In this document: positions 2,281 through 63,329 of the stretch, one piece after another
Layout: each line of letters begins with the position of its first letter
Numbering within the stretch: the stretch's first letter is position 1
DNA from: Squalus acanthias
Taxonomy: Eukaryota
Assembly (NCBI GenBank): GCA_030390025.1
Contig: JASTWF010000330.1
Coordinates: 186,001-250,000 of the forward strand
Direction: 5' to 3'
DNA length: 64,000 nucleotides
Notes under the pieces: generated by a model
The model's input: the letters and a program-made list of their open reading frames with translations, nothing else
Told to the model about the DNA's origin: nothing
The model's database searches: none
Translations under genes and position numbers: made by a program

Positions 2281-2376
2281 CTGGGCCTGCAGACCCTGCT
2301 GGGATTGTGGATGAAGGATCAGCAGATTCTTGAGTTGATTGTTCCTCGGGTTCCTGAGTTTTAGATGTCTCTGCAT
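2281..2376 (-). CDS. Putative exon, type B1, 96 nt: DAETSKTQEPEEQSTQESADPSSTIPAGSAGP
   Basis: Acceptor ctctctttcttcattaaag, donor CAG|GTATCT, phase 1-1, open. Confidence 0.68.
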
Positions 2377-3531
2377 CTTTAATGAAGAAAGAGAGTCATA
2401 GGTGAGTGCAGATTGGGGATTACCAAACAGGTCATCAGGCTGGTATTAGAGGTCGGAGGATGTCAGACACCAGTCTTTATATAAACCATAATCATCCAAT
2501 TGCACTCCTTTCAGTAACTGAATCCCACAATCCATAGTCAAAGCATCCCATTACCCTCAGTCACTGCGTCCCATTCACCTCAGTCACTGCATACCGATGC
2601 CCTCATTCACTGCATCACATACCAGTCAAACACTCCAACCCACTCCAATCAGTCAATAATTTCAACTACACTCAGACACTGCATACCAATCCCCTCAGTC
2701 ACTGCATCCCACTCCCTTCAGTCTCTACATCACACCCACTTCAATCACTGCATCCCAATCACCTCAAACATTTCCCCGAAACACTACGAAGACACCCCTC
2801 AGCAAATTCATTCCAATCCCCTCAGTCACTGCAAACCACTCCCTTCAATCATTAAACCCAATCTGCTGAGTTTCCTCATCCCACTTCCCTCAGTCCCCTC
2901 ATCCCACTCCCCTCGGTCTCCTCATCCAACTGCCATCTGTCTCCTCATCCAACTGCCCTCAGTCTCCTCACCCCACTTCCCTCAGTATCCGCATTCTACT
3001 CCCCTCAGTCATCTGATCCCACTCCCCAAAGTCTCCGCATCCCACTCCCCTCAGTCTCCGCATCCCACACCCCTCCGTCTCTTCATGACACACCCTCAGT
3101 CGCCTCATCCCACTCTCCTCAGTCTCCTCATCCCACTCCGTTCAGTCTCTCATCCCACTCCCCTCTGTCTCCTTTCCCACTCCCCTCAGTCTCCTCATCC
3201 CACGCCCCTCAGTCTCCTCATTCAACTCCACTCATTATCCTCATCCCACTCCCCTCTGTCTCCTCATCCCACTCCCCTCAGTCTCCTCATCCCACTGCCC
3301 TCTGTCTCCTCAACCCACTCCCCTCTGTCTCCTCATCCCACTCCCCACAGTCTCCTCATCCCACTCCCCTCGTTGTCCTCATCCCACTCCCCTCACTCTC
3401 CTCATCCCAGTCCATTCCTTCACTAAGACCCCTTCTCTCTGTAAGAGACTGGATGAATCTCCTTGTCTTGGCTTTTCAGGAGACACATTGGGTGAACAGT
3501 CTGCAAATCATGGAGCCCACAAGGCAGATAC

Positions 3532-3627
3532 CTGGGCCTGCAGACCCTGCTGGGATTGTGGATGAAGGATCAGCAGATTCTTGAGTTGATTGTTCCTCGG
3601 GTTCCTGAGTTTTGGATGTCTCTGCAT
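3532..3627 (-). CDS. Putative exon, type B2, 96 nt: DAETSKTQEPEEQSTQESADPSSTIPAGSAGP
   Basis: Acceptor ...cattaaag, donor CAG|GTATCT, phase 1-1, open. Confidence 0.68.
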
Positions 3628-6600
3628 CTTTAATGAAGAAAGAGAGTCATAGGTGAGTGCAGATTGGGGATTACCCAAACAGGTCATCAGGCTGGTATGA
3701 GAGTACGAAGGATGTCAGACACCACTCTACATATAAACCATAATCATCCAATTGCACTCCTTTCAGTAACTGAATCCCACGATCCATAGTCAAAGCATTC
3801 CATTCCCCTCAGTCATTGCGTCCCATTCCCCTCAGTCACTGCATACCGCTGCCCTCATTCACTGCAGGACATTCCTGTCAAACACTCCAACCCACTCCAA
3901 TGAGTCACTAATTTCAACTACACTCAGACACTGCATACCACTCCCCTCAGTCACTGCATCCCACTCCCTTCAATCATTAAACCCAATCTGCTGATTCTCC
4001 TCATCCCACTCCCCTCAGTCTCCTCATCCAACTTCCCTCAGTCCCCTCATCCCACTCCCCTCAGTCTCCTCATCCAAATGCCCTCAGTCTCCTCATCCAA
4101 CTCCCCTCAGTCTCCTCATTCCACTCCCCTCAGTCTCCTCACCCCACTCTCCTCAGTCTCCGCATCCCACTCCCCTCAGTCATCTGATCCCACTCCCCAA
4201 ATTCTCCACATCCCAGTCCCCTCATCTCCACATCCCACTCCCCTCATCTCCTCATCCCACTCCCCTCAGTCTCCACATCCCACCCCCTCCGTCTCTTCAT
4301 AACACACCCTCAGACGCCTCATCCCATTCTCCTCAGTCTCCTCATCCCACTCCACTCATTCTCCTCATCCCACTCCCCTCAGTCTCCTCATTCAACTACA
4401 CTCATTATCCTCATCCCACTCCCCTCTGTCTTCTCATCCCACTCCCCTCTGTCTCCTCATCCCACTCCCCTCAGTCTCCTCATCCCATTCCCCATAGTCT
4501 CCTCATTCCACTACCCACAGTCTCCTCATCCCACTCCCAACAATCTCCTCAACCCACTCACCACAGTCTCATCATCCCACTCCCCAAAGTCTCCTCATCC
4601 CACTCCCCTCAGTCACCTCAAAACACTCCCCTCAGTCTCCTCATCCCACTCCCCTCAGTCTCCTCATCCCACTCCCCTCAGTCTCCTCATCCTACTCCCC
4701 ACAGTCTCCTCTTAACACTCCCCTCGGTGTCCTCTTCCCACTCCCCTCACTCTCCTCATCACACACCCCACAGTCTCTTCATGCCACTCCTCTCAGTCTC
4801 CTCTTTCCACTCCTCTCAGTCTCCTCATACCACTCCCCAGTCTCCTCATCGCACTCTCCAGTCTCCTCAAACCACTCCCCACAGTGTCCTCATCCCACTC
4901 CCCACAATCTCTTCATCGCACTCCCAACAGTCTCCGCATCCCACTCCCCTAAGTCTCATCATCCGACTCCCCAAAGTCTCCTCATCCCACTCCACAGTCT
5001 CCTCATCCCACTCCCCTCAATCTCCTCACCCAACTCCCCTCAGTCTCCTCATCCCACTCCCCTCAGTCTCCACATCCCACACCTCACAGTCTCCTCATCC
5101 CCCTCCCCTCAGTCTCCTCATCCCACTCCCCTCAGTCTCCTCATTGCACTCCCCTCAGTCTACTCATCCCACTCCCTGCGGTGTCTTCGTCCCACTACCC
5201 TCAGTCTCCTCATCCCACTCCCCACAGTCTCCTCAACACACTCCCAACAGTCTCCTCATCCCACTCCCCTCAGTCTCCTCATCCCACTCCCCACAGTCTA
5301 CTCTTCCCACTCCCCTCGGTGTCCTCATCCCACTCCCCTCACTCTCCTCATCCCACACCCCTCAGTCTCTTCATGCCACTCCTCTCAGTCTCCTCTTCCC
5401 ACTCCTCTCAGTCTCCTCATCCCACTCCCCTCAGTCTCCACATCCCACACCTCACAGTCTCCTCATCCCCCTCCCCTCAGTCTCCTCATCCCACTACCCA
5501 CAGTCACCTCATCACACTCCCCTCAGTCTCCTCATCCCACTCCCCTCAGTCTCCTCATTGCACTCCCCACAGTCTACTCATCCCACTCCCTGCGGTGTCT
5601 TCGTCCCACTACCCTCAGTCTCCTCATCCCACTCCCCACATGCTCCTCATCCCACTCCCCACAGTCTCCTCAACACACTCCCAACAGTCTCCTCATCCCA
5701 CTCCCCTCAGTCTCCTCATCCCACACCCCTCAGTCTCTTCATGCCACTCCTCTCAGTCTCCTCTTCCCACTCCTCTCAGTCTCCTCATCCCACTCCCCAG
5801 TCTCCTCATCGCACTACCCAGTCTCCTCAAACCACTCCCCACAGTCTCCTAATCCCACTCCCCACAATCTCATCATCCCACTCCAAACAGTCTCCGCATC
5901 CGACTCCCCTCAGTCTCCTCAACCCACTCCCCTCAGTCTGCTCATCCCACACCCCTCAGTCTCCACATCCCACACCTCACAGTCTCCTCATCCCATTCCC
6001 CTCAGTCTCCTCATCCCACTACCCACAGTCTCCTCATCACACTACCCACAGTCTCCTCATCACAATCCCCTCATTCTCCTCATCCCACTACCCACAGTCT
6101 CCTCATCCCATTCCCCTCAGTCTCCTCATCCCACTACCCACAGTCTCCTCATCACAATCCCCTCAGTCTCCTCATCCCACTCCCCTCAGTCTCCTCATCC
6201 CACTCCCCTCAGTCTCCTCATCCCACTCCCCTCAGTCTCCTCATCCCACTCCCCTCAGTCTACTCATCCCACTCCCCACAGTCTCATCATCCCACTCGCC
6301 TCGGTGTCCTCATCCCTCTCCTCTCAGTCTCCTCATCCCACTCCCCACAGTCTCCTCAACACACTACCAACAGTCTCCTCATCCCACTCCCCTCAGTCTC
6401 CTCATCCCACTCCACTCATTCTCCTCATCCCACTCCCCAGTCTCCTCATCCCGCTCCCCAGTCTCCTCATCCCACTCCACAAAGTCCTCTCACCCCACTC
6501 CCCTCAGCTCCTCATCCCACTCCCCTCAGTCTCCCCATCCCACACCTCACAGTCTCGTCATCCCACTCCCTTCAGTCTCCTCATCCCACTCACCTCAGTC

Positions 6601-7729
6601 TCCTCATCCCACTCTCCTCAGTCTCCTCATCCCACTCCCAACAGTCTCCTCTACCCACTCCCCACAGTCCCCTCATCCCACTCCCCACAGTCTCCTCATC
6701 CCACTCACCACAGTCTCCTCATCCCACTCCCTTCAGTCTCCTCATCCCACTCCCTTCAGTCTCCTCATCCCACTCCCCTCAGTCTCCTCATCCCACTCTC
6801 CTCAGTCTCCTCATCTCACTCCCAACAGTCTCCTCATCCCACTCCCCACAGTACCTCATCCCACTCACCACAGTCTCCTCATTCCACTCCCTTCAGTCTC
6901 CTCATCCCACTCCCCTCAGTCTCCTCATCCCACTCTCCTCAGTCTCCTCATCCCACTCCCAACAGTCTCCTCATCCCACTCCCCACAGTCTCCTCATCCC
7001 ACTCACCACAGTCTCCTCATCCCACTCCCAACTGTCTCCTCATCCGACTACCCATAGTCTCCTCATCACACTCCCCTCAATCTCCTCATCCCACTCCCCA
7101 CGGTGTCTTCATCCCACTCCTCTCAGTCTCCTCATCCCACCCCCCAGTCTCCTCAACCCACTCCCAACAGTCTCCTCATCCCACTCCCCTCAGTCTCCTC
7201 ATCCCACTCCACTCATTCTCCTCATCCCACTCCACAAAGTCCCCTCACCCCACTCCCCTCAGTCTCCTCATCCCACTCCCCTCAATCTCCCCATCCCACA
7301 CCTTACAGTCTCCTCATCCCACTCCCTTCAGTCTCCTCATCCCACTCCCCTCAGTCTCCTCATCCCACTCTCCTCAGTCTTCTCATTCCACTCCCAACAG
7401 TCTCCTCATCCCACTCCCCACACTCCCCTCATCCCACTCCCCACAGTCTCCTCATCCCACTCACCACAGTCTCCTCATCCCACTCCCAACTGTCTCCTCA
7501 TCCCACTCACCACAGTCTCCTCATCCCATTCCCTTCAGTCTCCCCATCCCACACCCCTCAGTCTCCTCATCCCACTCTCCTCAGTCTCCTCATCCGACTC
7601 CCAACATTCTCCTCATCCCACTCACCAGTCTCCTCATCCCACTCCCCACAGTCTCCTCATCCCACTCACCACAGTCTCCTCATCCCACTCCCCTCAGTCT
7701 CCCCATCCCACACCTCACAGTCTCCTCAT

Positions 7730-8930
7730 CCCACTCCCTTCAGTCTCCTCATCCCACTCCCCTCAGTCTCCTCATCCCACTCTCCTCAGTCTCTCATTCC
7801 ACTCCCACAGTCTCCTCATCCCACTCCCCACACTCCCCTCATCCCACTCCCCACAGTCTCCTCATCCCACTCACCACAGTCTCCTCATCCCACTCCCAAC
7901 TGTCTCCTCATCCCACTCACCACAGTCTCATCATCCCACTCTCCACAGTCTCCTCATCCCATTCCCTTCAGTCTCCTCATCCCACACCCCTCAGTCTCCT
8001 CATCCCACTCTCCTCAGTCTCCTCATCCCACTCCCAACATTCTCCTCATCCCACTCACCACAGTCTCCTCATCCCACTCCCCACAGTCTCCTCATCCCAC
8101 TCACCACAGTCTCCTCATCCCACTCCCAACTGTCTCCTCATCACACTCACCACAGTCTCATCCACCCACTCCCACTTGCCACAATCTCCTCATCCCACTC
8201 CCTTGTCTCCTCATCCCACTGCCCGCTGTCTCCTCATCCCACTCCACTAGTCTCCTCATCCCACACCCCTCAGTCTCCTCATCCCACTCCCTTCAGTATC
8301 GTCATCCCATTCCCCACAGTCTCCTCATCCCACTCCCTTCAGTCTCCTCATCCCACTCCCCTCAGTCTCCTCATCCCACTCTCCTCAGTCTTCTCATTCC
8401 ACTCCCAACAGTCTCCTCATCCCACTCCCCACACTCCCCTCATCCCACTCCCCACAGTCTCCTCATCCCACTCACCACAGTCTCCTCATCCCACTCCCAA
8501 CTGTCTCCTCATCCCACTCACCACAGTCTCATCATCCCACTCTCCACAGTCTCCTCATCCCATTCCCTTCAGTCTCCTCATCCCACACCCCTCAGTCTCC
8601 TCATCCCACTCTCCTCAGTCTCCTCATCCCACTCCCAACATTCTCCTCATCCCACTCACCACAGTCTCCTCATCCCACTCCCCACAGTCTCCTCATCCCA
8701 CTCACCACAGTCTCCTCATCCCACTCCCAACTGTCTCCTCATCACACTCACCACAGTCTCATCCACCCACTCCCACTTGCCACAATCTCCTCATCCCACT
8801 CCCTTGTCTCCTCATCCCACTGCCCGCTGTCTCCTCATCCCACTCCACTAGTCTCCTCATCCCACACCCCTCAGTCTCCTCATCCCACTCCCCTCAGTAT
8901 CGTCATCCCATTCCCCACAGTCTCCTCATC
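7730..8930. repeat. 601-bp higher-order tandem duplication within the minisatellite
   Basis: Marker tccacccactcccacttgccacaatc at 8161 and 8762; two ORFs with identical C-termini end at 8250 and 8851; boundaries approximate. Confidence 0.8.
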
Positions 8931-11900
8931 ACACTCCCCTCAGTCTCCTCATCTCACTCACCTCGGTCTCCTCATCTCACTCCCCTCAGTCTCCTCATTC
9001 CACTCCCCTCAGTCTCCTCATACCACTCCCCTCAGTCTCCTCATCCCACTCCCCTCAGTCTACTCATCCCACTCCCCTCAGTTCCCTCATCACACTCCCC
9101 TCAGTCTCCTCACCCCACTCCCCTCAGTCCCCTCATCACAATCCCCTCGGTCTCCTCATCCCACTCCCCTCAGTCCCCTCATCCCACTCCCCTCGGTCTC
9201 CTCATCCCACTCCCCTCAGTCTCCTCATCCCACTCCCCTCAGTCTCCTCAACCCACTCCCCTCAGTCTCTTCATGCCACTCCTCTCAGTCTCCTCTTCCC
9301 ACTCCTCTCAGTCTCCTCATCCCACTCCCCAGTCTCCTCATCGCACTCCCCAGTCTCCTCAAACCACTCCCCGCAGTCTCCTCATCCCACTCCCCACAAT
9401 CTCATCATCCCACTCCAAACAGTCTCCGCATCCGACTCCCGTCAGTCTCCTCAACCCACTCCCCTCAGTCTGCTCATCCCACACCCCTCAGTCTCCACAT
9501 CCCACACCTCACAGTCTCCTCATCCCATTCCCCTCAGTCTCCTCCCACTCCCTGCGGTGTCCTCATCCCACTACCCTCAGTCTCCTCATCCCACTCCCCA
9601 CAGTCTCCTCATCCCACTCCCCTCGGTGTCCTCATCCCACTCCGCTCAGTCTCCTCATCCCACTTCCCTCAGTCTCCTCATCCCACTCCCCACAGTCTAC
9701 TCTTCCCACTCCCCTCGGTGTCCTCATCCCACTCCCCTCACTCTCCTCATCCCACACCCCTCAGTCTCTTCATGCCACTCTTCTCAGTCTCCTCTTCCCA
9801 CTCCTCTCAGTCTCCTCATCCCACTCCCCAGTCTACTCATCGCACTCCCCAGTCTCCTCAAACCACTCACCACAGTCTCCTCATCCCACTCCCCACAATC
9901 TCATCATCCCACTCCAAACAGTCTCCGCATCCCACTCCCCTCAGTCTCCTCAACCCACTCCCCTTATTCTGCTCATCCCACTCCCCTCAGTCTCCACATC
10001 CCACACCTCACAGTCTCCTCATCCCACTCCCCTCAGTCTCCTCATCGCACTACCCACAGTCTCCTCATCACACTCCCTTCAGTCTCTTCATCCCACTCCA
10101 CTCAGTCTCCTCATCCCACGCCCCTCAGTCGACTCATCCCACTCCCCGCGGTGTCCTGATCCCACTCCCCTCAGTCTCCTCATCCCACTCCCCTCAGTCT
10201 TCTCATCCCACTCCCCTCAGTCTCCTCATCCCACTCCCCTCAGTCTCCTCTTCCCACTCCCCTCAGTCTCCTCATCCCACTCCCCACAGTCTCCTCATCC
10301 CACTCCCCTCGGTGTACTGATCCCTCTCCTCTCAGTCTCCTCATCCCATTTCCCCCAGTCTCCTCAACCCACTCCCAACAGTCTCCTTATCCCACTCCCC
10401 TCAGTCTCCTCATCCCACTCCCTCAGTCTCCTCATCCACTCCCTCAGTCTCCTCATCCCACTCCCCTCAGTCTCCTCATCCCAGCTCCCTCAGTCTCCTC
10501 ATCCCACTCCCCTCAGTCTCCTCATCCCATTCCCCTCAGTCTCCTCATCCCAATCCCCTCAGTCTCCTCATCCCACTCCCCTCAGTCTCCTCATCCCACT
10601 CCCCTCAGTCTCCTCATCCCACAGCCCTCAGTCTCCTCATCCCACTCCCCTCAGTCGCTCATCCCACTCCCCTCAGTCTCCTCATCCCACTCCCCTCAGT
10701 CTCCTCATCCCACTCCCCTCAGTCTCTCATCCTCACTCCCCTCAGTCTCCTCATCCCACTCCCTCAGTCTCCTCATCCCCACTCCCCTCAGTTTCCTCAT
10801 CCCACTCCCCTCAGTCTCCTCATCTCACTCCCCTCAGTCTCCTCATCTCCACTCCCCTCAGTCTCCTCATCCCACTCCCCTCATTCTCCTCATCCCACTC
10901 CCCTCAGTCTCCTCATCCCTCTCCTCTCAGTCTCCTCATCCCACTCCCCACAGTCTCCTCAGCCCACTCCCAACAGTCTCCTCATCCCACTCCCCTCAGT
11001 CCCCTCATCCCACTCCACTCATTCCCCTCATCCCACTCCCATGTCTCCTCATCCCGCTACCCAGTCTCCTCATCCCACTCCACAAAGTCCCCTCACCCCA
11101 CTCCCCTCAGCTCCTCATCCCACTCCCCTCAGTCTCCTCATCCCACTCCCCACAGTCTCCTCAACCCACTCCCAACAGTCTCCTCATCCCACTTCCCAGT
11201 CTCCTCATCCCACTCCCAACTGTCTCCTCATCCCACTCACCACAGTCTCATCATCCCACTCTCCTCAGTCTCCTCATCCCACTCCCAACAGTCTCCTCAT
11301 CCCACTCCCCACAGTCTCCTCATCCCACTCCCCACAGTCTCCTCATCCCACTCCCCACAGTCTCCTCATCCCACTCACCACAGTCTCCTCATCCCACTCC
11401 CTCAGTACTCCTCATCCACTCCCCTCAGTCTCCTCATCCACTCCCCTCAGTCCTCCCATCCCACTCCCTCAGTCTCACATCCCACTCCCCTCAGTCGTCC
11501 TCATCCCACTCCCCTCAGTCTACTCATGCCAATCCCCTCAGTCTACTCATCCCACTCCCCAGTCTCCTCATCCCACACCCCTCAGTGTCCTGATCCCACA
11601 CCCATCAGTCTTCTCATCCCACTCCCCTCAGTCTCCTCATCGCCTCTCCCCTCAGTTCCTCATCCCACTCCCTCAGTCTCCTCATCCACTCCCCACAGTC
11701 TCCTCAACCACACCCCTCAGTCTCGATCGCCACTCCCCTCAGTCTCCTCATCCAATCCCCTCAGTCTCCTCATCCCCTCCCCTCAGTCCTCCTCATCCCA
11801 CTCCCCTAAGTCTCCTCATCCCACTCCCCTCAGTCTCCTCATCCCACTCCCCTCAGTCTCCTCATCCCACTCCCTCAGTCTCCACATCCCAATCCCCTCA

Positions 11901-47920: not shown

Positions 47921-48001
47921 CTGAGTCTGCAGACCCCACTGGGATAGTGGATGAACGGTCAGTGGATTCTTGAGTCGACTGTGTTGTGTATGTGTCCGGA
48001 T
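47921..48001 (-). CDS. Putative exon, type C, 81 nt: DPDTYTTQSTQESTDRSSTIPVGSADS (preceded by a duplicated acceptor)
   Basis: Paralogue of 39766..39846; intact AG and GT, but a 106-bp tandem duplication adds a second acceptor upstream. Confidence 0.55.
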
Positions 48002-48156: not shown

Positions 48157-49059
48157 GAACAGGTCATCAGGCTGGTACTGGAGCCAATCAGAATCCCACT
48201 CAATCACTGCATCCCACTCCCCTCAGCAACTGCGTCCCACTCCCCTCAGGAACTGCATCCCACTCCTCTCAGGAACTGCGGCCCACTCCCCTCAGGAACT
48301 GCGTCCCACTTCCCTCTGGAACTGCGTCCCACTCCCCTCAGGAACCGCGTTCCACTCCCCTCAGGAACTGCGTTCCACTCCCCTCAGGATCCGCGTTCCA
48401 TTCTCCTCAGGAACTGTGCCCCACTCCCCTCAGGAACTGCTTCCCACTCCCCTCAGGAACTGCGTCCCACTCCCCTCAGGAACTGCATCCCACTCCTCTC
48501 AGGAACTGCGTCCCACTTCCCTCTGGAACTGCATCCCACTCCCCTCAGGAACTGCATCCCACTCTCCTCAGTCTCCTCAACCCGGTCCCCTCAGTCTCCT
48601 CATCCCACTCCCCTCAGTCTCCTCATCCCACTCCCCTCAGTCCCCTCATCCCACTTCCCTCAGTCCCCTCATCCCACTCCCCTCAGACTCCTCATTCCAC
48701 TCCCCTCAGTCTCCTCATCCCACACAACTCAGTCTCCTCATCCAACTCCCCACCGTCCCCTCATCCCACTCCCCTCAGTATCCTCATCAAACTGCCCTCA
48801 GTCCCCTCATCCCACTCCCCTCGGTCTCCTCATCCCACTCCCCTCAGTCTCCTCAAACCACACACCTCAGTCTCCTCATCAAACTCCCCTCAGTCTCCTC
48901 ATTCCACACACCTCAGTCTCCTCATCAAACTCCCCTCAGTCTTCTCATCTCGCTCCCCTCAGTCACTATACCCACTCACTCAGTAAGAGACTGGATGAGC
49001 TTTTCAGGAGTCACATTGTGTGAACAGACTGTACACAATGGACAGAACAAGACAGATAC

Positions 49060-49140
49060 CTGAGGCTGCAGACCCCACTGGGATAGTGGATGAACGGTCA
49101 GTGGATTCTCGAGTCAACTGTGTTGTGGATGTGTCCGGAT
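49060..49140 (-). CDS. Putative exon, type C, 81 nt: DPDTSTTQLTRESTDRSSTIPVGSAAS
   Basis: Acceptor ...tttatttcag, donor CAG|GTATCT; phase-0 frame has TGA. Confidence 0.7.
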
Positions 49141-50862: not shown

Positions 50863-50943
50863 CTGAGTCTGCAGACCCCACTGGGATAGTGGATGAACGG
50901 TCAGTGGATTCTCGAGTCGACTGTGTTGTGTATGTGTCCGGAT
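50863..50943 (-). CDS. Putative exon, type C, 81 nt: DPDTYTTQSTRESTDRSSTIPVGSADS
   Basis: Acceptor ...tttatttcag, donor CAG|GTATCT. Confidence 0.7.
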
Positions 50944-51987
50944 CTGAAATAAAGGAAGAGAGACTTGGGAGAGTGCAGAGTGGAGAAAACCAGAACAGGT
51001 CATCAGGCTGGTACTGGAGCCAATCACAATCCCACTCACTCACTGCGTCCCACTCCTCTCAGGAACTGTGTCCAACTCCCCTCATGAACTGTGTCCAACT
51101 CCCCTCAGGAACCGCGTCCCACTCCTCTCAGGAACTGCGTCCCACTCCCCTCAGGAACTGCGTCCCACTCCCCTCAGGAACCGCGTCCCACTCCCCTCAG
51201 GAACCGCGTCCCACTCCCCTCAGGAACTGCGTCCCACTCCCCTCAGGAACTGCGTCCCACTCCCCTCAGGAACTGCATCCCACTCCCCTCAGGAACTGCG
51301 TCCCACTCCCCTCAGGAACTGCGTCTCACTCCTCTCAGGAACTGCGTCTCACTCCTCTCAGGAACTGCGTCCCATTCCCCTCAGGAACCGCGTCCCACTC
51401 TCCTCAGGAACCGCGTCCCACTCTCCTCAGGAACCGCGTCCCACTCCCCTCAGGAACTGCGTCCCACTCCCCTCAGTCTCCTCATCCCACTCCCCACAGT
51501 CTCCTCATTCCACACATCTCAGTCTCCTCATTCCACTCCCCTCAGTCCCCTCATCCTACTCCCCACAGCCTCCTCATCCCACTCCCCTCAGTCTCCTCAA
51601 CCCAGTTCCCTCAGTCTCCTCATCCCACTCCCCTCATTGTACTCATTCTGCTCCCCTCAGTCTCCTCGTCCCACTCCCCTGAGTCTCCTCATCCCATTCC
51701 CCTCAGTCTCCTCATCCCACTCCCCTCAGTCTCCTCATCCCACTCCCCTCAGTCTCCTCATCCCACTCCCCTCAGTTTCCTCATCCCACTCCTCTCAGTC
51801 TCCTCATCCCATTCCCCTCAGTCTCCTCATTCCACTCCCCTCAGTCTCCTCATCACACTCCCCTCAGACTCCTCATCTCGCTCCCCTCAGTCACTATACC
51901 CACTCACTCAGTAAGAGACTGGATGAGCTTTTCAGGAGTCACATTGGGTGAACAGACTGTACACAACGGACAGAACAAGACAGATAC

Positions 51988-52068
51988 CTGAGGCTGCAGA
52001 CCCCACTGGGATAGTATTTGAACGGTCAGTGGATTCTTTAGTCGACTGTGTTGTGTATGTGTCCGGAT
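51988..52068 (-). CDS. Putative exon, type C, 81 nt: DPDTYTTQSTKESTDRSNTIPVGSAAS
   Basis: Acceptor ...tttattgcag, donor CAG|GTATCT. Confidence 0.7.
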
Positions 52069-54145
52069 CTGCAATAAAGGAAGAGAGACATGGGAGAGTG
52101 CAGAGTGGAGAAAACCAGAACAGGTCATCAGGCTGGTACTGGAGCCAATCACAATCCCAGTCACTCACTGCGATCCACTCCCCTCAGGAACCACGTTCCA
52201 CTCCCCTCAGGAACTGCATCCCACTTCCCTCAGGAACTGCATCCCACTCCTCTCAGGAACTGCGTCACACTTCCCTCAGGAACTGCATCCCACTCCTCTC
52301 AGGAACTGCGTCCCACTTCCCTCAGGAACTGCATCCCACTCCTCTCAGGAACTGCGTCACACTTCCCTCAGGAACCGCGTTCCACTCCCCTCAGGAACCA
52401 TATCCCACTCTCCTCAGGAACTGCGTCCCACTCTCCTCAGGAATCGCGTCCCACTCCCCTCAGGAACCGCGTCCCTCTCCCCTCAGGAACCGCGTCCCAC
52501 TCCCCTCAGGAAATGCGTCCAACTCTCCTCAGGGACCGCGTTCCACTCCCCTCAGGAACCGCGTTCCACTCCCCTCAGGAACTGTGTTCCACTCCCCTCA
52601 GGAAATGCGTCCAACTCTCCTCAGGGACCGCGTTCCACTCCCCTCAGGAACCGCGTTCCACTCCCCTCAGGAACCGCGTCCCACTCCCCTCAGGAACTGC
52701 GTTCCACTCTCCTCAGGAACTGTGTTCCACTCCCCTCAGGAACTGCGTCCCACTCCCCTCAGGAACCGCGTCCCACTCCCCTCAGGAACCGCATACCACT
52801 CCCCTCAGGAACCGCGTTCCATTCCCCTCAGGAACCGCGTTCCACTCTCCTCAGGAACCGCGTTCCACTCCCCTCAGGAACCGCGTTCCACTCCCCTCAG
52901 GAACCGCGTTCCACTCCCCTCAGGAACCGCGTTCCACTCCCCTCAGGAACCGCGTTCCACTCCCCTCAGGAACCGCGTTCCACTCCCCTCAGGAACCGCG
53001 TTCCACTCCCCTCAGGAACCGCGTTCCACTCCCCTCAGGAACCGCGTTCCACTCCCCTCAGGAACCGCGTTCCACTTCCCTCAGGAACCGCGTTCCACTC
53101 CCCTCAGGAACCGCGTTCCACTCCCCTCAGGAACCGCGTTCCACTCCCCTCAGGAACAGCGTCCCACTCCCATCAGGAACCGCGTTCCACTCCCCTCAGG
53201 AACTGCGTCTCACTCTCCTCAGTCTCCTCAACCCACTTCCTTCAGTCTCCTCACCCCACCATCCTCAGTCTTCTCATCCCACTCCGTCAGTCTCCTCATC
53301 CCATTCGGATCAATCTCGTCATTCCACTTCCCTCAGTCTCCTCATCCCACTATAATTCAGTCCCCTCACCCTACACTCCACTGTCTCCTCATCCCACTCC
53401 CATCAGTCTCCTCATCCCACTCCCCTCAGTCTCCTCATGCCATGCCCCTCAGTCTCCTCAACCCAGTTCCCTCAGTCTCCTCATCCCACTCCCCTCAATG
53501 TACTCATCCCACTCCCCTACGTCTCCTTGTCCCACTCCCCTGAGTCTCCTCATCCCATTCCCCTCAGTCTCCTCATCCCACTCCATAAAGCCTCCTCATC
53601 CCACTCCCCTCAGTCTCCTCATCCCACTCCCCTCAGTCTCCTCATCCCACTCCCCTCAGTCTCCTCATCCCATTCCCCTCAGTCTCCTCATCCCACTCCA
53701 TAAAGCCTCCTCATCCCACTCCCCTCAGTCTCCTCATCCCACTCCCCTCAGTCTCCTCATCCCACTCCCCTCAGTCTCCTCATCCCACTCCCCTCAGTCT
53801 CCTCATCCCACTCCACACAGACTCCTCATCCCTGTCTCCAGTCTCCTCATCCCACTACCCTCAGTCTCCTCATCACATTCGGCTCAGACTCCTCATCCCA
53901 CTCCCCTCAGACTCCTCATCCCACTCCCCTCAGTCTCCTCATCCCACTCCCCTCAGTCTCCTCATCCCACTACCCTCAGTCTCCTCATCACATTCGGCTC
54001 AGACACGTCATTCCACTCCCCTCAGACTCCTCATCTCGCTCCCCTCAGTCACTATATCCACTCACTCAGTAAGAGCCTGGATGAGCTTTTCAGGAGTCAC
54101 ATTGGGTGAACAGACTGTACACAACGGACAGAACAAGACAGATAC

Positions 54146-54226
54146 CTGAGTCTGCAGAACCCACTGGGATAGTGGATGAACGGTCAGTGGATTCTTGAGT
54201 CGACTGTGTTGTGGATGTGTCCGGAA
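54146..54226 (-). CDS. Putative exon, type C, 81 nt: VPDTSTTQSTQESTDRSSTIPVGSADS
   Basis: Variant acceptor ...tttattaaag|TT, donor CAG|GTATCT. Confidence 0.62.
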
Positions 54227-55806
54227 CTTTAATAAAGGAAGAGAGACTTGGGAGAGTGCAGAGTGGAGTAAACCAGAACAGGTCATCAGGCTGGTACTGG
54301 AGCCAATCACAATCCCACTCACTCACTGCGTCCCACTCCCCTCAGGAACCGCGTCCCACTCTCCTCAGGAACTGTGTCCCACTCCCCTCAGGAACTGCGT
54401 CCCACTCCCCTCAGGAACTGCGTCCCACTTCCCTCAGGAACTGCGTCCCACTCCCCTCAGGAACCGCTACCACTCCCCTCAGGAACTGTGTCCCACTCCC
54501 CTCAGGAACCGCGTCCCACTCCCCTCAGGAACTGCATCCCACTCCTCTCAGGAACCGCTACCACTCCCCTCAGGAACTGTGTCCCACTCCCCTCAGGAAC
54601 TGCGGCCCACTCCCCTCAGGAACTGTGTCCCACTCCCCTCAGGAACTGCGTCCCACTCCCCTCAGGAACCGCTACCACTCCCCTCAGGAACCGCGTCCCA
54701 CTCCCCTCAGGAACCGCGTCCCACTCCCCTCAGGAACTGCATCCCACTCCCCTCAGGAACTGCATCCCACTCCCCTCTGGAACTGCATCCCACTCCTCTC
54801 AGGAACTGCGTCCCACTCCCCTCTGGAACTGCGTCCCACTTCCCTCTGGAACTCCATCCCACTCCTCTCAGGAACTGCGTCCCACTTCCCTCTGGAACTG
54901 CGTCCCACTTCCCTCTGGAACTGCGTCCCACTTCCCTCTGGAACTGCGTCCCACTCCCCTCAGGAACCGCTACCACTCTCCTCAGGAACTGTGTCCCACT
55001 CCCCTCAGGAACTGCGTCCCACTCCCCTCAGGAACCGCTACCACTCCTCTCAGGAACTGCGTCCCACTCCCCTCAGGAACTGCGTCCCACTCCCCTCAGG
55101 AACTGCGTCCCACTCCCCTCAGGAACTGCGTCCCACTCCCCTCAGGAACTGCATCCCACTCCTCCCAGTCTCCTCAACCCACTTCACTCAGTCTCCTCAT
55201 CCCACCCTCCTAAGTCTCCTCATCCCACTCCCGACAGTCTCCTCATCCCATTCGGATCAGTACCGTCATTCCACTTCCCTCAATCTCCTCATCCCACTAC
55301 TTTCAGTCTCCTCATCCCACTCCCCACATTCTCCTCATCCCACTCACATCAGTCTCCTCATTCCACTCCCCTGTCTCCTCATCCCACTCCCCTCAGCCCA
55401 CTCCCCTCAGTCTCCTCATTCCACTCCCCTCTGTCTCCTCATCCCACTCACATCAGTCTCCTCATTCCACTCCCCTCAGTCTCCTCATTCCACTCCCCTC
55501 TGTCTCCTCATCCCACTCACATCAGTCTCCTCATTCCACTCCCCTCTGTCTCCTCTTCCCACTCCCCTCTGTCTCCTCTTCCCACTCCCCTCAGTCTCCT
55601 CAGCCCACTCCCCTCAGTCTCCTCTTCCCACTCCTCTCAATCTACTCATCCCACTCCCCTCAGTCTCCACATCCCACTCCCCTCAGACTCCTCATCTCGC
55701 TCCCCTCAGTCACTGTATCCACTCACTCAGTAAGAGCCTGGATGAGCTTTTCAGGAGTCACATTGGGTGAACAGACTGTACACAATGGACGGAACAAGAC
55801 AGATAC

Positions 55807-55887
55807 CTGAGTCTGCAGACCCCACTGGGATAGTGGATGAACGGTCAGTGGATTCTCGAGTCGACTGTGTTGTGTATGTGTCCGGAT
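55807..55887 (-). CDS. Putative exon, type C, 81 nt: DPDTYTTQSTRESTDRSSTIPVGSADS
   Basis: Paralogue of 50863..50943; intact AG and GT. Confidence 0.7.
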
Positions 55888-56931
55888 CTGAAATAAAGGA
55901 AGAGAGACTTGGGAGAGTGCAGAGTGGAGAAAACCAGAACAGGTCATCAGGCTGGTACTGGAGCCAATCACAATCCCACTCACTCACTGCGTCCCACTCC
56001 TCTCAGGAACTGTGTCCAACTCCCCTCAGGAACTGTGTCCAACTCCCCTCAGGAACCGCGTCCCACTCCTCTCAGGAACTGCGTCCCACTCCCCTCAGGA
56101 ACTGCGTCCCACTCCCCTCAGGAACCGCGTCCCACTCCCCTCAGGAACCGCGTCCCACTCCCCTCAGGAACTGCGTCCCACTCCCCTCAGGAACTGCGTC
56201 CCACTCCCCTCAGGAACTGCATCCCACTCCCCTCAGGAACTGCGTCCCACTCCCCTCAGGAACTGCGTCTCACTCCTCTCAGGAACTGCGTCTCACTCCT
56301 CTCAGGAACTGCGTCCCATTCCCCTCAGGAACCGCGTCCCACTCTCCTCAGGAACCGCGTCCCACTCTCCTCAGGAACCGCGTCCCACTCCCCTCAGGAA
56401 CTGCGTCCCACTCCCCTCAGTCTCCTCATCCCACTCCCCACAGTCTCCTCATTCCACACATCTCAGTCTCCTCATTCCACTCCCCTCAGTCCCCTCATCC
56501 TACTCCCCACAGCCTCCTCATCCCACTCCCCTCAGTCTCCTCAACCCAGTTCCCTCAGTCTCCTCATCCCACTCCCCTCATTGTACTCATTCTGCTCCCC
56601 TCAGTCTCCTCGTCCCACTCCCCTGAGTCTCCTCATCCCATTCCCCTCAGTCTCCTCATCCCACTCCCCTCAGTCTCCTCATCCCACTCCCCTCAGTCTC
56701 CTCATCCCACTCCCCTCAGTTTCCTCATCCCACTCCTCTCAGTCTCCTCATCCCATTCCCCTCAGTCTCCTCATCAAACTCCCCTCTGTCTTCTCATCTC
56801 GCTCTCCTCAGTCTCCTCATCACACTCCCCTCAGTCACTATACCCTCTCACTCAGTAAGAGCCTGGATGAGCTTTTCAGGAGTCACATTGGGTAAACAGA
56901 CTGTACACAACGGACAGAACAAGACAGATAC

Positions 56932-57012
56932 CTGAGGATGGAGAACCCACTGGGATAGTGATTGAACGGTCAGTGGATTCTTGAGTCGACTGTGTTGTGG
57001 ATGTGTCCGGAT
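56932..57012 (-). CDS. Putative exon, type C, 81 nt: DPDTSTTQSTQESTDRSITIPVGSPSS
   Basis: Acceptor ...tttattacag, donor CAG|GTATCT. Confidence 0.7.
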
Positions 57013-58494
57013 CTGTAATAAAGGAAGAGAGACTTGGGAGAGTGCAGAGTGGAGAAAACCAGAACAAGTCATCAGGCTGGTACTGGAGCCAATCACAATC
57101 CCACTAACTCACTGCGATCCACTCCCCTCAGGAACCATATCCCACTCTCCTCAGGAACCGCGTTCCACTCCCCTCAGGAACCGCATTCCACTCCCCTCAG
57201 GAACTGCGTTCCAGTCCCCTCAGGAACTGCGTCCCACTCCCGTCAGGAACTGCATACCACTCCCCTCAGGAACCGCGTTCCATTCCCCTCAGGAACCGCG
57301 TTCCACTCCCCTCAGGAACCGCGTTCAACTCTCCTCAGGAACCGCGTTCCACTCCCCTCAGGAACTGCGTTCCATTCCCCACGGGAACCGCGTTCCACTC
57401 CCCTCAGGAACTGCGTTCCATTCCCCTCAGGAACCGCGTTCCACTCCCCTCAGGAACCTCGTTCCACTCCCCTCAGGAACTGCGTTCCATTCCCCTCAGG
57501 AACCGCGTCCCACTCCCCTCAGGAACTGCGTTCCATTCCCCACGGGAACCGCGTTCCACTCCCCTCAGGAACCGCGTTCCACTCCCCTCAGGAATTGCAT
57601 TCCACTCCCCTCAGGAACTGCGTCCCACTCCCCTCAGGAACTGCGTCCCACTCCCCTCAGGAACTGTGTCTCACTCTCCTCAGTCTCCTCAACCCACTTC
57701 CTTCAGTCTCCTCACCCCACCCTCCTCAGTCTTCTCATCCCACTCCGTCAGTCTCCTCATCCCATTCGGATCAATCTCGTCATTCCACTTCCCTCAGTCT
57801 CCTCATCCCACTACTATTCAGTCCCCTCACCCTACTCCCCACTGTCTCCTCATCCCACTCCCATCAGTCTCCTCAGCCCACTCCCCTCAGTCTCCTCATC
57901 CCACTCCCATCAGTCTCCTCAGCCCACTCCCCTCAGTCTCCTCAGCCCACTCCCCTCAGTCTCCTCATCCCATGCCCCTCAGTCTCCTCAACCCAGTTCC
58001 CTCAGTCTCCTCATCCCACTACTATTCAGTCCCCTCACCCTACTCTCCACTGTCTCCTCATCCTACTCCCCTCATTCTCCTCATCGAATTCCGCTCCGAC
58101 TCCTCATCCAACTCCCCTCAGTCTCCTCATCCCACTCCTCTCAGTCTACTCATCCCTCTCCCCTTAGTCTCCTCAATCGACTCCCCACCGTCCCCTCATC
58201 CCACTCCCCTCAGTCTCCTCAACCCAGTTCCCTCAGTCTCCTCATCCCACTCCCCTCAATGTACTTATTCTGCTCCCCTCAGTCTCCTCGTCCCACTCCC
58301 CTGAGTCTCCTCATCCTATTCCCCTCAGTCTCCTCATTCCACTCCCCTCAGTCTCCTCATCCCACTCCCCTCAGTCTCCTCATCCCACTCCTCTCAGTCA
58401 CTATACCCACTCACTCAGTAAGAGACTGGTTGAGCTTTTCAGGAGTCACATTGGGTGAACAGACTGTACACAGTGGACGAAACAAGACAGATAC

Positions 58495-58575
58495 CTGAGT
58501 CTGCAGACCCCACTGGGATAGTATTTGAACGGTCAATGGATTCTTGAGTCGACTGTGTTGTGTATGTGTCCGGAT
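58495..58575 (-). CDS. Putative exon, type C, 81 nt: DPDTYTTQSTQESIDRSNTIPVGSADS
   Basis: Acceptor ...tttattacag, donor CAG|GTATCT. Confidence 0.7.
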
Positions 58576-59297
58576 CTGTAATAAAGGAAGAGAGACTTGG
58601 GAGAGTGCAGAGTGGAGAAAGCCAGAACAGGTCATCAGGCTGGTACTGGAGCCAATCACAATCCCACTCACTCACTGCGTCCCACTCCCCTCAGGAACCG
58701 CGTCCCACTCCTCTCAGGAACTGCGTCCCACTCCCCTCAGGAACTGCGTCCCACTCCTCTCAGGAACTGTGTCCCTCTCCCCTCAGGAACTGCATCCCAC
58801 TCCCCTCAGGAACTGCATCCCACTCCCCTCAGGAACTGCATCCCACTCCTCTCAGGAACTGCATCCCACTCTCCTCAGGAACTGCGTCCCACTCCCCTCA
58901 AGAACTGCGTTCCACTCCAATCAGGAACTGCGTCCCACTCCCCTCAGGAACTGCATCACACTCCCCTCAGACTCCTCATTCCACTCCCCTCAGTCTCCTC
59001 ATCCCACACAACTCAGTCCCCTCATCCCACTCCCCTCAGTATCCTCATCAAATTCCCCTCAGTCTCCTCATCCCACACAACTCAGTCTCCTCATTACACT
59101 CCCCTCAGTTTCCACATTCCACACACCTCAGTCTCCTCATCAAACTCCCCTCTGTCTTCTCATCTCGCTCTCCTCAGTCTCCTCATCACACTCCCCTCAG
59201 TCACTATACCCTCTCACTCAGTAAGAGCCTGGATGAGCTTTTCAGGAGTCACATTGGGTAAACAGACTGTACACAACGGACAGAACAAGACAGATAC

Positions 59298-59378
59298 CTG
59301 AGGATGGAGAACCCACTGGGATAGTGATTGAACGGTCAGTGGATTCTTGAGTCGACTGTGTTGTGGATGTGTCCGGAT
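59298..59378 (-). CDS. Putative exon, type C, 81 nt: DPDTSTTQSTQESTDRSITIPVGSPSS
   Basis: Same peptide as 56932..57012; intact AG and GT. Confidence 0.7.
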
Positions 59379-60100
59379 CTGTAATAAAGGAAGAGAGACT
59401 TGGGAGAGTGCAGAGTGGAGAAAGCCAGAACAGGTCATCAGGCTGGTACTGGAGCCAATCACAATCCCACTCACTCACTGCGTCCCACTCCCCTCAGGAA
59501 CCGCGTCCCACTCCTCTCAGGAACTGCGTCCCACTCCCCTCAGGAACTGCATCCCACTCCTCTCAGGAACTGTGTCCCTCTCCCCTCAGGAACTGCATCC
59601 CACTCCCCTCAGGAACTGCATCCCACTCCCCTCAGGAACTGCATCCCACTCCTCTCAGGAACTGCATCCCACTCTCCTCAGGAACTGCGTCCCACTCCCC
59701 TCAAGAACTGCGTTCCACTCCAATCAGGAACTGCGTCCCACTCCCCTCAGGAACTGCATCACACTCCCCTCAGACTCCTCATTCCACTCCCCTCAGTCTC
59801 CTCATCCCACACAACTCAGTCCCCTCATCCCACTCCCCTCAGTATCCTCATCAAATTCCCCTCAGTCTCCTCATCCCACACAACTCAGTCTCCTCATTAC
59901 ACTCCCCTCAGTTTCCACATTCCACACACCTCAGTCTCCTCATCAAACTCCCCTCTGTCTTCTCATCTCGCTCTCCTCAGTCTCCTCATCACACTCCCCT
60001 CAGTCACTATACCCTCTCACTCAGTAAGAGCCTGGATGAGCTTTTCAGGAGTCACATTGGGTAAACAGACTGTACACAACGGACAGAACAAGACAGATAC

Positions 60101-60181
60101 CTGAGGATGGAGAACCCACTGGGATAGTGATTGAACGGTCAGTGGATTCTTGAGTCGACTGTGTTGTGGATGTGTCCGGAT
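60101..60181 (-). CDS. Putative exon, type C, 81 nt: DPDTSTTQSTQESTDRSITIPVGSPSS
   Basis: Same peptide as 56932..57012; intact AG and GT. Confidence 0.7.
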
Positions 60182-61732
60182 CTGTAATAAAGGAAGAGAG
60201 ACTTGGGAGAGTGCAGAGTGGAGAAAACCAGAACAAGTCATCAGGCTGGTACTGGAGCCAATCACAATCCCACTAACTCACTGCGATCCACTCCCCTCAG
60301 GAACCATATCCCACTCTCCTCAGGAACCGCGTTCCACTCCCCTCAGGAACCGCATTCCACTCCCCTCAGGAACTGCGTTCCAGTCCCCTCAGGAACTGCG
60401 TCCCACTCCCGTCAGGAACTGCATACCACTCCCCTCAGGAACCGCGTTCCATTCCCCTCAGGAACCGCGTTCCACTCCCCTCAGGAACCGCGTTCAACTC
60501 TCCTCAGGAACCGCGTTCCACTCCCCTCAGGAACTGCGTTCCATTCCCCACGGGAACCGCGTTCCACTCCCCTCAGGAACTGCGTTCCATTCCCCTCAGG
60601 AACCGCGTTCCACTCCCCTCAGGAACCGCGTTCCACTCCCCTCAGGAACTGCGTTCCATTCCCCTCAGGGACCGCGTCCCACTCCCCTCAGGAACTGCGT
60701 TCCATTCCCCACGGGAACCGCGTTCCACTCCCCTCAGGAACCGCGTTCCACTCCCCTCAGGAATTGCATTCCACTCCCCTCAGGAACTGCGTCCCACTCC
60801 CCTCAGGAACTGCGTCCCACTCCCCTCAGGAACTGTGTCTCACTCTCCTCAGTCTCCTCAACCCACTTCCTTCAGTCTCCTCACCCCACCCTCCGCAGTC
60901 TTCTCATCCCACTCCGTCAGTCTCCTCATCCCATTCGGATCAATCTCGTCATTCCACTTCCCTCAGTCTCCTCATCCCACTACTATTCAGTCCCCTCACC
61001 CTACTCCCCACTGTCTCCTCATCCCACTCCCATCAGTCTCCTCAGCCCACTCCCCTCAGTCTCCTCATCCCACTCCCATCAGTCTCCTCAGCCCACTCCC
61101 CTCAGTCTCCTCAGCCCACTCCCCTCAGTCTCCTCATCCCATGCCCCTCAGTCTCCTCATCCCACTCCCATCAGTCTCCTCATCCCACTCCCCTCAGTCT
61201 CCTCATCCCACTCCCATCAGTCTCCTCAGCCCACTCCCCTCAGTCTCCTCAGCCCACTACTATTCAGTCCCCTCACCCTACTCTCCACTGTCTCCTCATC
61301 CTACTCCCCTCATTCTCCTCATCGAATTCCGCTCCGACTCCTCATCCAACTCCCCTCAGTCTCCTCATCCCACTCCTCTCAGTCTACTCATCCCTCTCCC
61401 CTTAGTCTCCTCAATCGACTCCCCACCGTCCCCTCATCCCACTCCCCTCAGTCTCCTCAACCCAGTTCCCTCAGTCTCCTCATCCCACTCCCCTCAATGT
61501 ACTCATTCTGCTCCCCTCAGTCTCCTCGTCCCACTCCCCTGAGTCTCCTCATCCTATTCCCCTCAGTCTCCTCATTCCACTCCCCTCAGTCTCCTCATCC
61601 CACTCCCCTCAGTCTCCTCATCCCACTCCTCTCAGTCACTATACCCACTCACTCAGTAAGAGACTGGTTGAGCTTTTCAGGCGTCACATTGGGTGAACAG
61701 ACTGTACACAATGGACGGAACAAGACAGATAC

Positions 61733-61813
61733 CTGAGTCTGCAGACCCCACTGGGATAGTATTTGAACGGTCAATGGATTCTTGAGTCGACTGTGTTGTG
61801 TATGTGTCCGGAT
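61733..61813 (-). CDS. Putative exon, type C, 81 nt: DPDTYTTQSTQESIDRSNTIPVGSADS
   Basis: Paralogue of 58495..58575; intact AG and GT. Confidence 0.7.
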
Positions 61814-63248
61814 CTGTAATAAAGGAAGAGAGACTTGGGAGAGTGCAGAGTGGAGAAAGCCAGAACAGGTCATCAGGCTGGTACTGGAGCCAATCACAAT
61901 CCCACTCACTCACTGCGTCCCACTCCCCTCAGGAACCGCGTCCCACTCCTCTCAGGAACTGCGTCCCACTCCCCTCAGGAACTGCATCCCACTCCTCTCA
62001 GGAACTGTGTCCCTCTCCCCTCAGGAACTGCATCCCACTCCCCTCAGCAACTGCATCCCACTCCCCTCAGGAACTGCATCCCACTCCTCTCAGGAACTGC
62101 ATCCCACTCTCCTCAGGAACTGCGTCCCACTCCCCTCAAGAACTGCGTTCTACTCCAATCAGGAACTGCATCCCACTCTCCTCAGGAACTGCGTCCCACT
62201 CCCCTCAGAAACTGCGTCCCACTCCCCTCAGGAACCGCGTCCCACTCCCCTCAGGACCTGCGTCCCACTCCCCTCAGGACCTGCGTCCCACTCCCCTCAG
62301 GAACTGCATCCCACTCCCCTCAGGAACCGCGTCCCACTCCTCTTAGGAACTGCGTCTCACTCTCCTCAGGAACTGCGTCCCACTCCTCTCAGTCTCCTCA
62401 ACCCACTCCCGACAGTCTCCTCATCCTATTCGGATCAGTACCGTCATTCCACTTCCCTCAATCTCCTCATCCCACTACTTTCAGTCCCCTCATCCCACTC
62501 CCCTTATTCTCCTCATCCCACTCCCCGCAGTCTCCTCATCCCACTTCCCTCAGTCCCCTCATCCTACTACCCTCAGTCTCCTCATCCCACTCCACTCAGT
62601 CTCCTCATCCCACTCCCCTCAGTCCCCTCATCCCACTCCCCTCAGTCTCCTCATCCCACACCCCTCAGTCCCCTCATCCCACTTCGCCCAGTCCCGTCAT
62701 CCCACTCCCCTCAGTCTCCTCATCCCACTTCCCTCAGTCTCCTCATCCCACTCCCCTCAGTCTCCTCATCCCACACAACTCAGTCTCCTCATCCCACTCC
62801 CCTCAGTCTCCTCAACACACTTCCCTCAGTCCCCTCATCGCACTCCCCTCAGTCTCCTCATCCCACACACCTCAGTCTCCTCATCCCACTCCCCTCAGTC
62901 ACCTCATCCCACTTCCCTCAGTCTCCTCATCTCACTCCCCTCAGTCTCCTCATCCCACACAACTCAGTCTCCTCATCCCACTCCCCTCAGTCTCCTCATC
63001 CCACTTCCCTCAGTCCCCTCATCCCACTCCGCTCAGTCTCCTCATCCCACTCCCCTCAGTCCCCTCATCCCACTTCCCTCAGTCCCCTCATCCCACTCCC
63101 CTCAGACTCCTCATCTCGCTCCCCTCAGACTCCTCATCTCGCTCCCCTCAGTCACTATACCCACTCACTCAGTAAGAGACTGGATGAGCTTTTCAGGAGT
63201 TACATTGGGTGAACAGAATGTACACAATGGACGGAACAAGACAGATAT

Positions 63249-63329
63249 CTGAGGCTGCAGAACCCACTGGGATAGTGGTTGAACGGTCAGTGGATTCTCG
63301 AGTCGACTGTGTTGTGGATGTGTCTGGAT
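63249..63329 (-). pseudogene. Type C exon copy with mutated donor (CAG|ATATCT), probable pseudo-exon: DPDTSTTQSTRESTDRSTTIPVGSAAS
   Basis: Plus strand reads cagatatctgag instead of cagatacctgag (position 63248 is t), so GT>AT; acceptor ...ttttatttcag is intact. Confidence 0.65.

Follow-up and report, generated by a model that had tools for sequence, protein, structure and literature searches.

The D10C decoy module is known from GP2 and uromodulin (UMOD; PDB 7P6R, 6TQK, 6ZS5), and the high-mannose glycan bound by FimH sits at N65 in GP2 and at N275 in UMOD (PMC8930769). In zebrafish, the omcins omc1-15 combine variable numbers of tandem D10C modules with a clustered gene expansion; E. coli induces omc5, which protects against bacteria, and the family is called teleost-specific, with neither 'shark' nor 'cartilaginous' in the main text (PMC11415648). 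Stalks that devote one exon to each repeat also have a precedent, as the PTS domain of chicken Muc13 is built in this way and a length tuned by splicing was proposed for it in 2006 (PMC1552070), and Xenopus FIM-C.1 is polymorphic through alternative splicing (PMC7177656). We compare with them a locus of Squalus acanthias, the 64,000-nucleotide (nt) stretch between positions 186,001 and 250,000 of contig JASTWF010000330.1 (hereafter the window, on scaffold C2562), in which a first-pass annotation had noticed 30 exon-like islands coding for a mucin-like stalk. Very probably, these islands are exons for the stalk of a host gene that we identified on the minus strand of the scaffold.

The host model resembles GP2 and UMOD in its D10C homology, its leader peptide and a sequon equivalent to GP2 N65, and its gene family resembles the omcins in the variable number of tandem D10C modules and in its clustered expansion. 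Unlike GP2 and UMOD, the host has no beta-hairpin, EGF domain, ZP module or glycosylphosphatidylinositol (GPI) signal, so it would form no ZP filament; moreover, the C3-C6 cysteine pair is absent, an extra pair is present, the mucin stalk is long, and dozens of variable-loop genes stand in place of one conserved gene. The omcins differ from the host in their EGF and ZP domains and predicted GPI anchor, and no mucin stalk is described for them in the text covered. Muc13 differs as a transmembrane (TM) mucin of PTS-SEA-TM type with at least 12 units of 20 amino acids (aa), and FIM-C.1 by its TFF modules; in the texts covered, neither belongs to a large variable family or has a head of D10C type. 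Because it has no ZP, EGF or anchor, the host stands outside the UMOD/GP2/omcin family of ZP-module proteins, although by analogy it likely works as a decoy in the manner of GP2 and the omcins.

The closest relatives are RefSeq models from Amblyraja radiata (XP_032880858), Leucoraja erinacea (XP_055492298 and XP_055492300, both named 'oncoprotein-induced transcript 3 protein-like'), Mobula (LOC134339928), Hemitrygon (XP_072893584) and Mustelus (XP_078055451). Like the host, these uncharacterised predictions combine D10C modules with an acidic stalk, which in the skates consists of 31/32-aa repeats that begin with Asp, and end in the same small C-terminal domain, again lacking a TM segment; their stalks count 0 to ~9 units against 37. 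The 81-nt unit and the minisatellite introns described below were seen only in S. acanthias DNA, the RefSeq relatives having been compared as protein models. A search of open-access PMC and bioRxiv, outside which most subscription papers fall, returned no paper on an elasmobranch D10C-stalk family.

The stalk-exon array and its host gene

On the minus strand of the window we recovered the 30 whole units, 23 of 81 nt and seven of 96 nt, each with a pyrimidine tract and an AG, and 29 of them with the donor CAG/GTATCT, just as they had been described (Table 1). The 29 intact units joined into an open frame of 818 aa (22 x 27 + 7 x 32), as also reported, and phase 1 was the sole frame open in all copies. 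Serine accounts for 21.8% of this stalk, threonine for 19.6%, aspartate for 11.2%, proline for 8.6% and glutamate for 6.8% (S+T 41%, S+T+P 50%, D+E 18%, Lys+Arg 5%). It is the long, repeated Ser/Thr/Pro-rich domain by which a mucin domain is recognized, lying within the window, and contains no N-glycan sequon. The largely AG-free zone claimed upstream of the acceptors is not general: it was found in 19 of the 29 intact units (55-71 nt), while the other ten have an AG at 18 nt. When the generic acceptor-81/96-donor pattern was counted in the block-shuffled window, 200 shuffles gave a mean of 0.04 and a maximum of 2 against the 29 observed, and chance was rejected as its source.

The array exceeds the window by six units upstream and one downstream, which brings the host gene to 37 whole units, an exact count that could be off; the median stalk intron measures 1,206 nt. 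The 81-nt form, found in the host gene alone among nine regions examined, is an in-frame derivative 15 nt shorter than the 96-nt form, which is the length of 138 of 141 distinct 95/96-nt units. Because the exons of the six-exon block that stands twice in tandem are identical while its introns differ, also in length, it is likely a recent real duplication; a simple assembly duplication was rejected on the difference between the introns.

The entire 537-kb scaffold was examined around the window, all of which (C2562:186001-250000) is internal to the host gene; the gene exceeds both ends. With a phase-1 leader upstream and folded domains on both sides, the proposal of a stalk of symmetric phase-1 exons, one repeat per exon, in a minus-strand gene was borne out. 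As foreseen, the leader lies at higher coordinates and a folded domain at lower ones; no TM exon was found. Leader, D10C module 2, the 36 intact stalk exons and the tail join into an open model of 1,258 aa that consists wholly of leader, D10C, stalk, linker and a 70-aa domain, its stop coming ~70 aa past the linker in a basic, hydrophilic exon. By hydropathy, no TM or GPI-like segment and no hydrophobic 19-mer follow residue 30 (maximum Kyte-Doolittle value over 19 residues 0.26; mean of the last 25 aa -0.83), and the protein is predicted to be secreted. A ZP-module protein was rejected, as the scaffold gave no match to the ZP domain (PF00100) among 150 scored of 318 candidates and both the model and its homologs end after the C-terminal domain. 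The VWD/C8/TIL and cystine-knot domains of gel-forming mucins are not in the host model, and Pfam searches with seven single exons returned D8C only. The host has a mucin domain, yet it is neither a transmembrane nor a gel-forming mucin.

Table 1. Features of the window (plain positions) and of the host gene on the scaffold (positions prefixed C2562).
Feature	Position	Strand	Remarks
Stalk-exon array	2281..63329	-	30 phase-1/phase-1 units, 29 intact, 818 aa, S/T/D/E/P-rich; chance test
Seven 96-nt (32-aa) stalk exons	2281-2376, 3532-3627, 22843-22938, 23789-23884, 24956-25051, 31335-31430, 32143-32238	-	length common to the family
Twenty-two intact 81-nt (27-aa) stalk exons	33229..61813	-	mean identity 94%
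High coordinates of the 81-nt exons	33309, 34795, 36082, 37391, 38400, 39846, 40868, 42812, 44099, 45523, 46532	-	
High coordinates of the 81-nt exons, continued	48001, 49140, 50943, 52068, 54226, 55887, 57012, 58575, 59378, 60181, 61813	-	
81-nt unit with AT donor instead of GT	63249..63329	-	CAG/ATATCT; likely skipped
106-nt tandem duplication	47944..48156	-	gives a partial 31st unit without its own donor (acceptor 48107); with the next donor, a 187-nt out-of-frame exon (by arithmetic)
Six-exon block, twice in tandem (48001-40868 and 39846-33309)	33229..48001	-	exons identical; introns 95.7-97.5% alike, of different lengths
23-bp minisatellite filling the stalk introns	660..63998	.	~77% of the window
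Leader exon	C2562:281256-281223	-	11 codons, hydrophobic, phase-1 donor
D10C module 1	C2562:270942-268117	-	145+77+164 nt, frameshifted
D10C module 2	C2562:266088-262387	-	145+77+165 nt, open, GP2-N65-type sequon
Six stalk exons upstream of the window	C2562:261726-251242	-	
Stalk exon downstream of the window	C2562:185192-185097	-	
90-nt linker exon	C2562:180656-180567	-	donor GTATCA
116-nt phase-1/0 exon of the C-terminal domain	C2562:178524-178409	-	55 genome matches
Last coding exon	C2562:157273-157175	-	with stop, without TM segment

Several stalk introns hold other sequence. The 19-kb intron at 3934-22747 is nearly pure 23-bp minisatellite, and its gap of 354 N (18382-18735) could hide exons. 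A non-LTR (long terminal repeat) retrotransposon-like fragment with a (ACATAAGAA)n tail, presumably of the CR1/LINE (long interspersed element) class, lies at 25626-27283. One copy only of the duplicated six-exon block carries an insertion inside the minisatellite (41478-41919), which we take to be SINE-like (short interspersed element) followed by a LINE-type tail, and a unique AT-rich insert of ~1.2 kb occupies 1-537 and continues to C2562:185441. The intron before the last exon spans 21 kb in the host (26-bp satellite, C2562:157380-174938), 49 kb in the closest paralog (C3579:158127-207340) and ~0.4-5 kb in most other family members.

The gene family, its head and its C-terminal domain

The 116-nt C-terminal exon matches the genome 55 times on 16 contigs, and the D8C exon gave 150 scored matches among 158 candidates. 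A same-strand D8C exon lies 8.7-84 kb upstream of 46 of the 55 C-terminal-exon matches, the 84 kb of the host being the longest distance. Six paralogs on three other contigs, picked from the 46 to span the range of distances and not at random, contain 5, 5, 9, 13, 19 and 35 stalk units. The suggestion that copy number varies the length of the stalk was thus confirmed between paralogs; the arrangement of one repeat per exon is not unique, as Muc13 and the 35-exon paralog demonstrate. Host and sampled paralogs share the exon order D10C(145/77/165)n - stalk(96)m - 90 - 116 - last exon, read among the matches listed, which include contig C647 in part. Within the stalk span of the six paralogs, each kb holds 9-17 occurrences of the minisatellite core, compared with 0.5-1.0 outside.

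Homologs with the stalk or the same C-terminal domain came from a shark, skates and rays only, all of them automatic models; for the C-terminal domain this range stems from one word-seeded search with eight matches, and a 40-aa search with the C-terminal exon yielded one candidate and no match. The layout recurs in the Amblyraja model (three D10C modules, 31/32-aa stalk repeats, same C-terminal domain) and in those of Mobula, Hemitrygon and Leucoraja. The Mustelus model (P0003) has three D10C modules and the C-terminal domain without a stalk, which may mean that the stalk is dispensable or was skipped in annotation.

We took in 189 stalk units from the whole family, leaving out four of 193 profile matches for poor acceptor match, and 178 of them were intact. 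Of 183 units, one had a stop in the phase-1 frame, while the other two frames were interrupted in 178 and 29. The single-base variants seen in 128 distinct 96-nt exons comprised 55 of 77 synonymous (71%), 132 of 189 missense (70%) and 1 of 13 nonsense changes (p = 8e-6, a value that overstates the case, as do all such P values here, because the copies are related and not independent). Since missense changes are as common as synonymous ones and nonsense changes nearly absent, the variation is that of a region which is translated but free to change in amino-acid sequence. The AG or GT was broken in 4 of 141 distinct units, compared with ~46% expected at 14% divergence. At the level of sequence, these data show selection against stops and for splice sites in the stalk exons of the family.

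Transcript-like contigs from three same-species runs cover the exons at ~80-90% identity and leave the introns little covered save for a repeat. They join exons across the 93-nt head intron in all three runs, from head to first stalk exon in one and from stalk to stalk in two, while no head-to-tail junction exists in the 845 kb of genomic DNA examined. Stalk exons are spliced in paralogs, and the stalk-to-stalk junctions that had been predicted do occur there, although the contigs cannot resolve isoforms.

The head belongs with UMOD and GP2. The third exon of module 2 (C2) matches Pfam D8C_UMOD (PF23283; E 4.2e-8, 33.7 bits against a cut-off of 27), its first exon (A2) aligns with human GP2 and uromodulin chains (GP2 7p6r, E 4.9e-5), and the Mustelus homolog retrieved UMOD and GP2 only from the PDB (E 1e-26 to 1e-30). 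In the second and third exons of 31 distinct open modules, variation is concentrated in four patches. Half of the sequences served to define the patches and the other 15 to test them: the uncorrected proportions of nonsynonymous and synonymous differences (pN/pS) came to 0.44/0.33 there, compared with 0.068/0.110 for the framework. In 29 modules, differences at codon positions one and two of the patches reach 0.50, while the intron has 0.12, a comparison that is partly circular. Judged from these alignments, the head loops are shown to be hypervariable on a conserved framework. Cysteines C4, C5, C7, C8 and C10 occur in 29 of 29 family modules, but the ten-cysteine, five-disulfide pattern of GP2 is not preserved, with C3 and C6 absent and the extra pair inserted. 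Host module 2 also has no C2 or C9, C9 being present in 19 of 29 family modules. Of 30 modules, 20 have a sequon equivalent to GP2 N65, and host module 2 is one of them.

The C-terminal domain matched no Pfam family above its curated cut-off, SEA included. The Mustelus counterpart, 33% identical to the host exon, returned no usable match from ESM Atlas, none at E 0.001 from Foldseek against the PDB and none below E 0.29 from a sequence profile search of the PDB. Its 57-aa predicted structure (mean predicted local distance difference test, pLDDT, 79) gave weak matches in which four presumed SEA chains ranked among the top 11 (Z 3.2-3.5); two of the four are titled SEA, and we take the other two, from GPR110 and GPR126, to be SEA domains as well. 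All these matches, including the one to MUC1 6bsc_A (Z 3.5, root-mean-square deviation 2.7, 48 aligned), lie below any reliable level, and a single-sequence fold of the Mustelus protein reached pLDDT 34. A SEA-like fold of this modelled domain is only a lead.

Other copies and related exons were seen on the way. Four more stalk arrays (14, 12, 14 and 18 units) lie at C2562:385000-506000 with orientation flips at 500-N joins, and three of them, 92% alike, look like one gene with mis-oriented contigs. A sister gene has five tandem D10C modules at C2562:55315-69416 and six at C3832:105868-123923, a difference in head-module copy number between haplotypes or assemblies. The last exon of the host is duplicated at 99% (C2562:110198-110366 and 157145-157313), together with a 13-kb block of 26-bp repeats whose copies are 94% alike; a 500-N join separates the two, and this is a haplotype or assembly duplicate. 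At C7:147990788-148351689, C1736 and C3652 the last exon has weak, repeated matches that contain stops and lack the exon before it; they may be noise or belong to a related family. Matches to ZP-domain exons form large tandem arrays, up to dozens per scaffold (C1109, C1945, C1879, C2997, C3223, C3278, C3813), and are another expanded extracellular family.

Weighing the alternatives

The family may be real while the window's copy is decaying or silent, its array having grown passively by minisatellite-driven unequal crossing-over with no protein made. We regard this as unlikely. The third exon of module 1 measures 164 nt instead of 165, so that inclusion of both modules leads to a stop at codon 115; one stalk donor is dead and one unit is a partial duplicate; the 81-nt exons, 94% alike, are by themselves too young for a selection test (14 missense, 3 synonymous, 0 of 8 nonsense); stops occur in some family exon matches, and module 2 is short of two cysteines. 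Set against this, the leader, module 2, the linker, both C-terminal exons and 36 of the 37 stalk units are intact over 124 kb. The two missing cysteines are the C2-C9 partners of GP2 and are also absent in the ray homologs P0001 and P0002, so their loss looks compensated. The first exon of each D10C module has a phase-1 acceptor, which means that the leader can splice to module 2, and the frameshift in module 1 could be an assembly error. On balance we think that the window's gene copy is probably expressed.

Somewhat less credible still is the view that these are secreted structural or reproductive glycoproteins (a gel, a lubricant, an egg or sperm coat, a sensory jelly) whose variable heads serve gamete or self recognition or result from gene conversion. 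Gels are well served by acidic, hydrated stalks, as is established in mucin chemistry, the amino-acid changes of the stalk look neutral, and reproductive proteins are likewise fast-evolving. On the other hand, the closest characterised D10C proteins, GP2, UMOD and omcin, are antibacterial, and a conserved framework bearing hypervariable patches, in a family with 55 matches to its C-terminal exon, would be typical of host-microbe conflict. A search of one supplement of a catshark semen proteome gave no uromodulin, GP2, OIT3 or mucin entry (PMC11083954).

Stalk exons that are spliced in a regulated fashion are familiar from CD45 and CD44. A membrane-anchored receptor with a stalk tuned by combinatorial exon skipping as in those proteins is nevertheless very improbable, and was rejected. 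Its supports are the symmetric exons, a donor (GTATCT) that departs from the U1 consensus at +4 and +5, and the Leucoraja isoforms of one locus, XP_055492298 and XP_055492300, which differ by one 32-aa stalk unit and are the only sign of stalk-exon skipping. The host, however, shows no segment of TM or GPI-like character, the same C-terminal domain is directly followed by the stop in four ray models and one shark model, and the linker exon has a donor similar to that of the stalk exons. The analogy with CD45, CD44 and CD46 drawn in the first-pass annotation fits poorly because there is no TM exon.

Chance within satellite DNA, or an error of assembly, can be practically dismissed as the origin of the array: the N gap in the window, the flipped arrays at several 500-N joins elsewhere on the scaffold and the duplicated last exon would favour it, but the host coding exons all lie between two 500-N joins, the one 354-N gap falls within a stalk intron, that gap has 96-nt exons of the same type on either side, the shuffles do not reproduce the pattern, the host exons comprise 27 distinct sequences, the duplicated blocks differ in their introns, and the layout recurs in the six paralogs and in skate and ray models.

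A proposed decoy-mucin and what it may mean

We favour, with some reserve, a host protein that is a secreted decoy-mucin made of a leader, a UMOD/GP2-type D10C head, a stalk of ~1,000 aa and a small C-terminal domain, acting as a microbe-binding decoy in mucus. Its stalk, to judge from composition, would be densely O-glycosylated, and, being extended and acidic, would space the head from the C-terminal domain. Any symmetric exon could be gained, lost or skipped without loss of frame; because symmetric exons are frame-safe, the array can expand freely, and unequal crossing-over within the minisatellite-filled introns may change the length of the stalk. In the window's copy, expression would involve a splice from the leader directly to module 2 that bypasses the broken module 1. 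Once secreted into mucus, the protein may bind microbes through its variable head or through a glycan like that on GP2 N65, as the analogies with GP2, uromodulin and the zebrafish omcins suggest. A mucosal antimicrobial role for the family as a whole is, by the same analogies, slightly favoured.

Several observations pull against the decoy-mucin. Contigs only ~80-90% alike come from paralogs and not from the window's copy; the three runs belong to one study, and their RNA nature is presumed. The host gene itself has the frameshifted module, the AT donor and the partial unit, and the isoform pair that would speak for skipping is an automatic model. Ten of the 30 modules have no N65-type sequon, the position of UMOD N275 is not a sequon, and the modules lack the beta-hairpin under which the high-mannose glycan of GP2 is sheltered; with the hairpin, C3-C6 and an N275 sequon all missing, the FimH-type mechanism does not carry over directly. 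As pS is also raised in the variable patches, gene conversion may contribute to head diversity.

A broader scenario, which we offer as speculative and rather doubtful, is that sharks and rays possess more than 50 genes that together form a secreted, germline-encoded repertoire for recognition. Its hypervariable D10C heads would be under diversifying selection, stalk length would be set by exon gain, loss and skipping with the minisatellite as recombination engine, and a half-SEA-like C-terminal domain would attach to a partner without a covalent bond, as if the shed half of MUC1 had become a separate gene.

Because its design has precedent and is family-wide, the stalk array alone is less surprising than first thought. 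The finding points to a large, uncharacterised and probably innate-immune family of cartilaginous fishes. It lies hidden in small scaffolds rich in satellite DNA, its only annotation being automatic models that are often partial, and it joins a known antibacterial decoy domain to a mucin stalk in place of a ZP filament. With 5 to 37 stalk exons across paralogs, it would offer a natural system for the 2006 proposal of a mucin length tuned, within one animal, by splicing.

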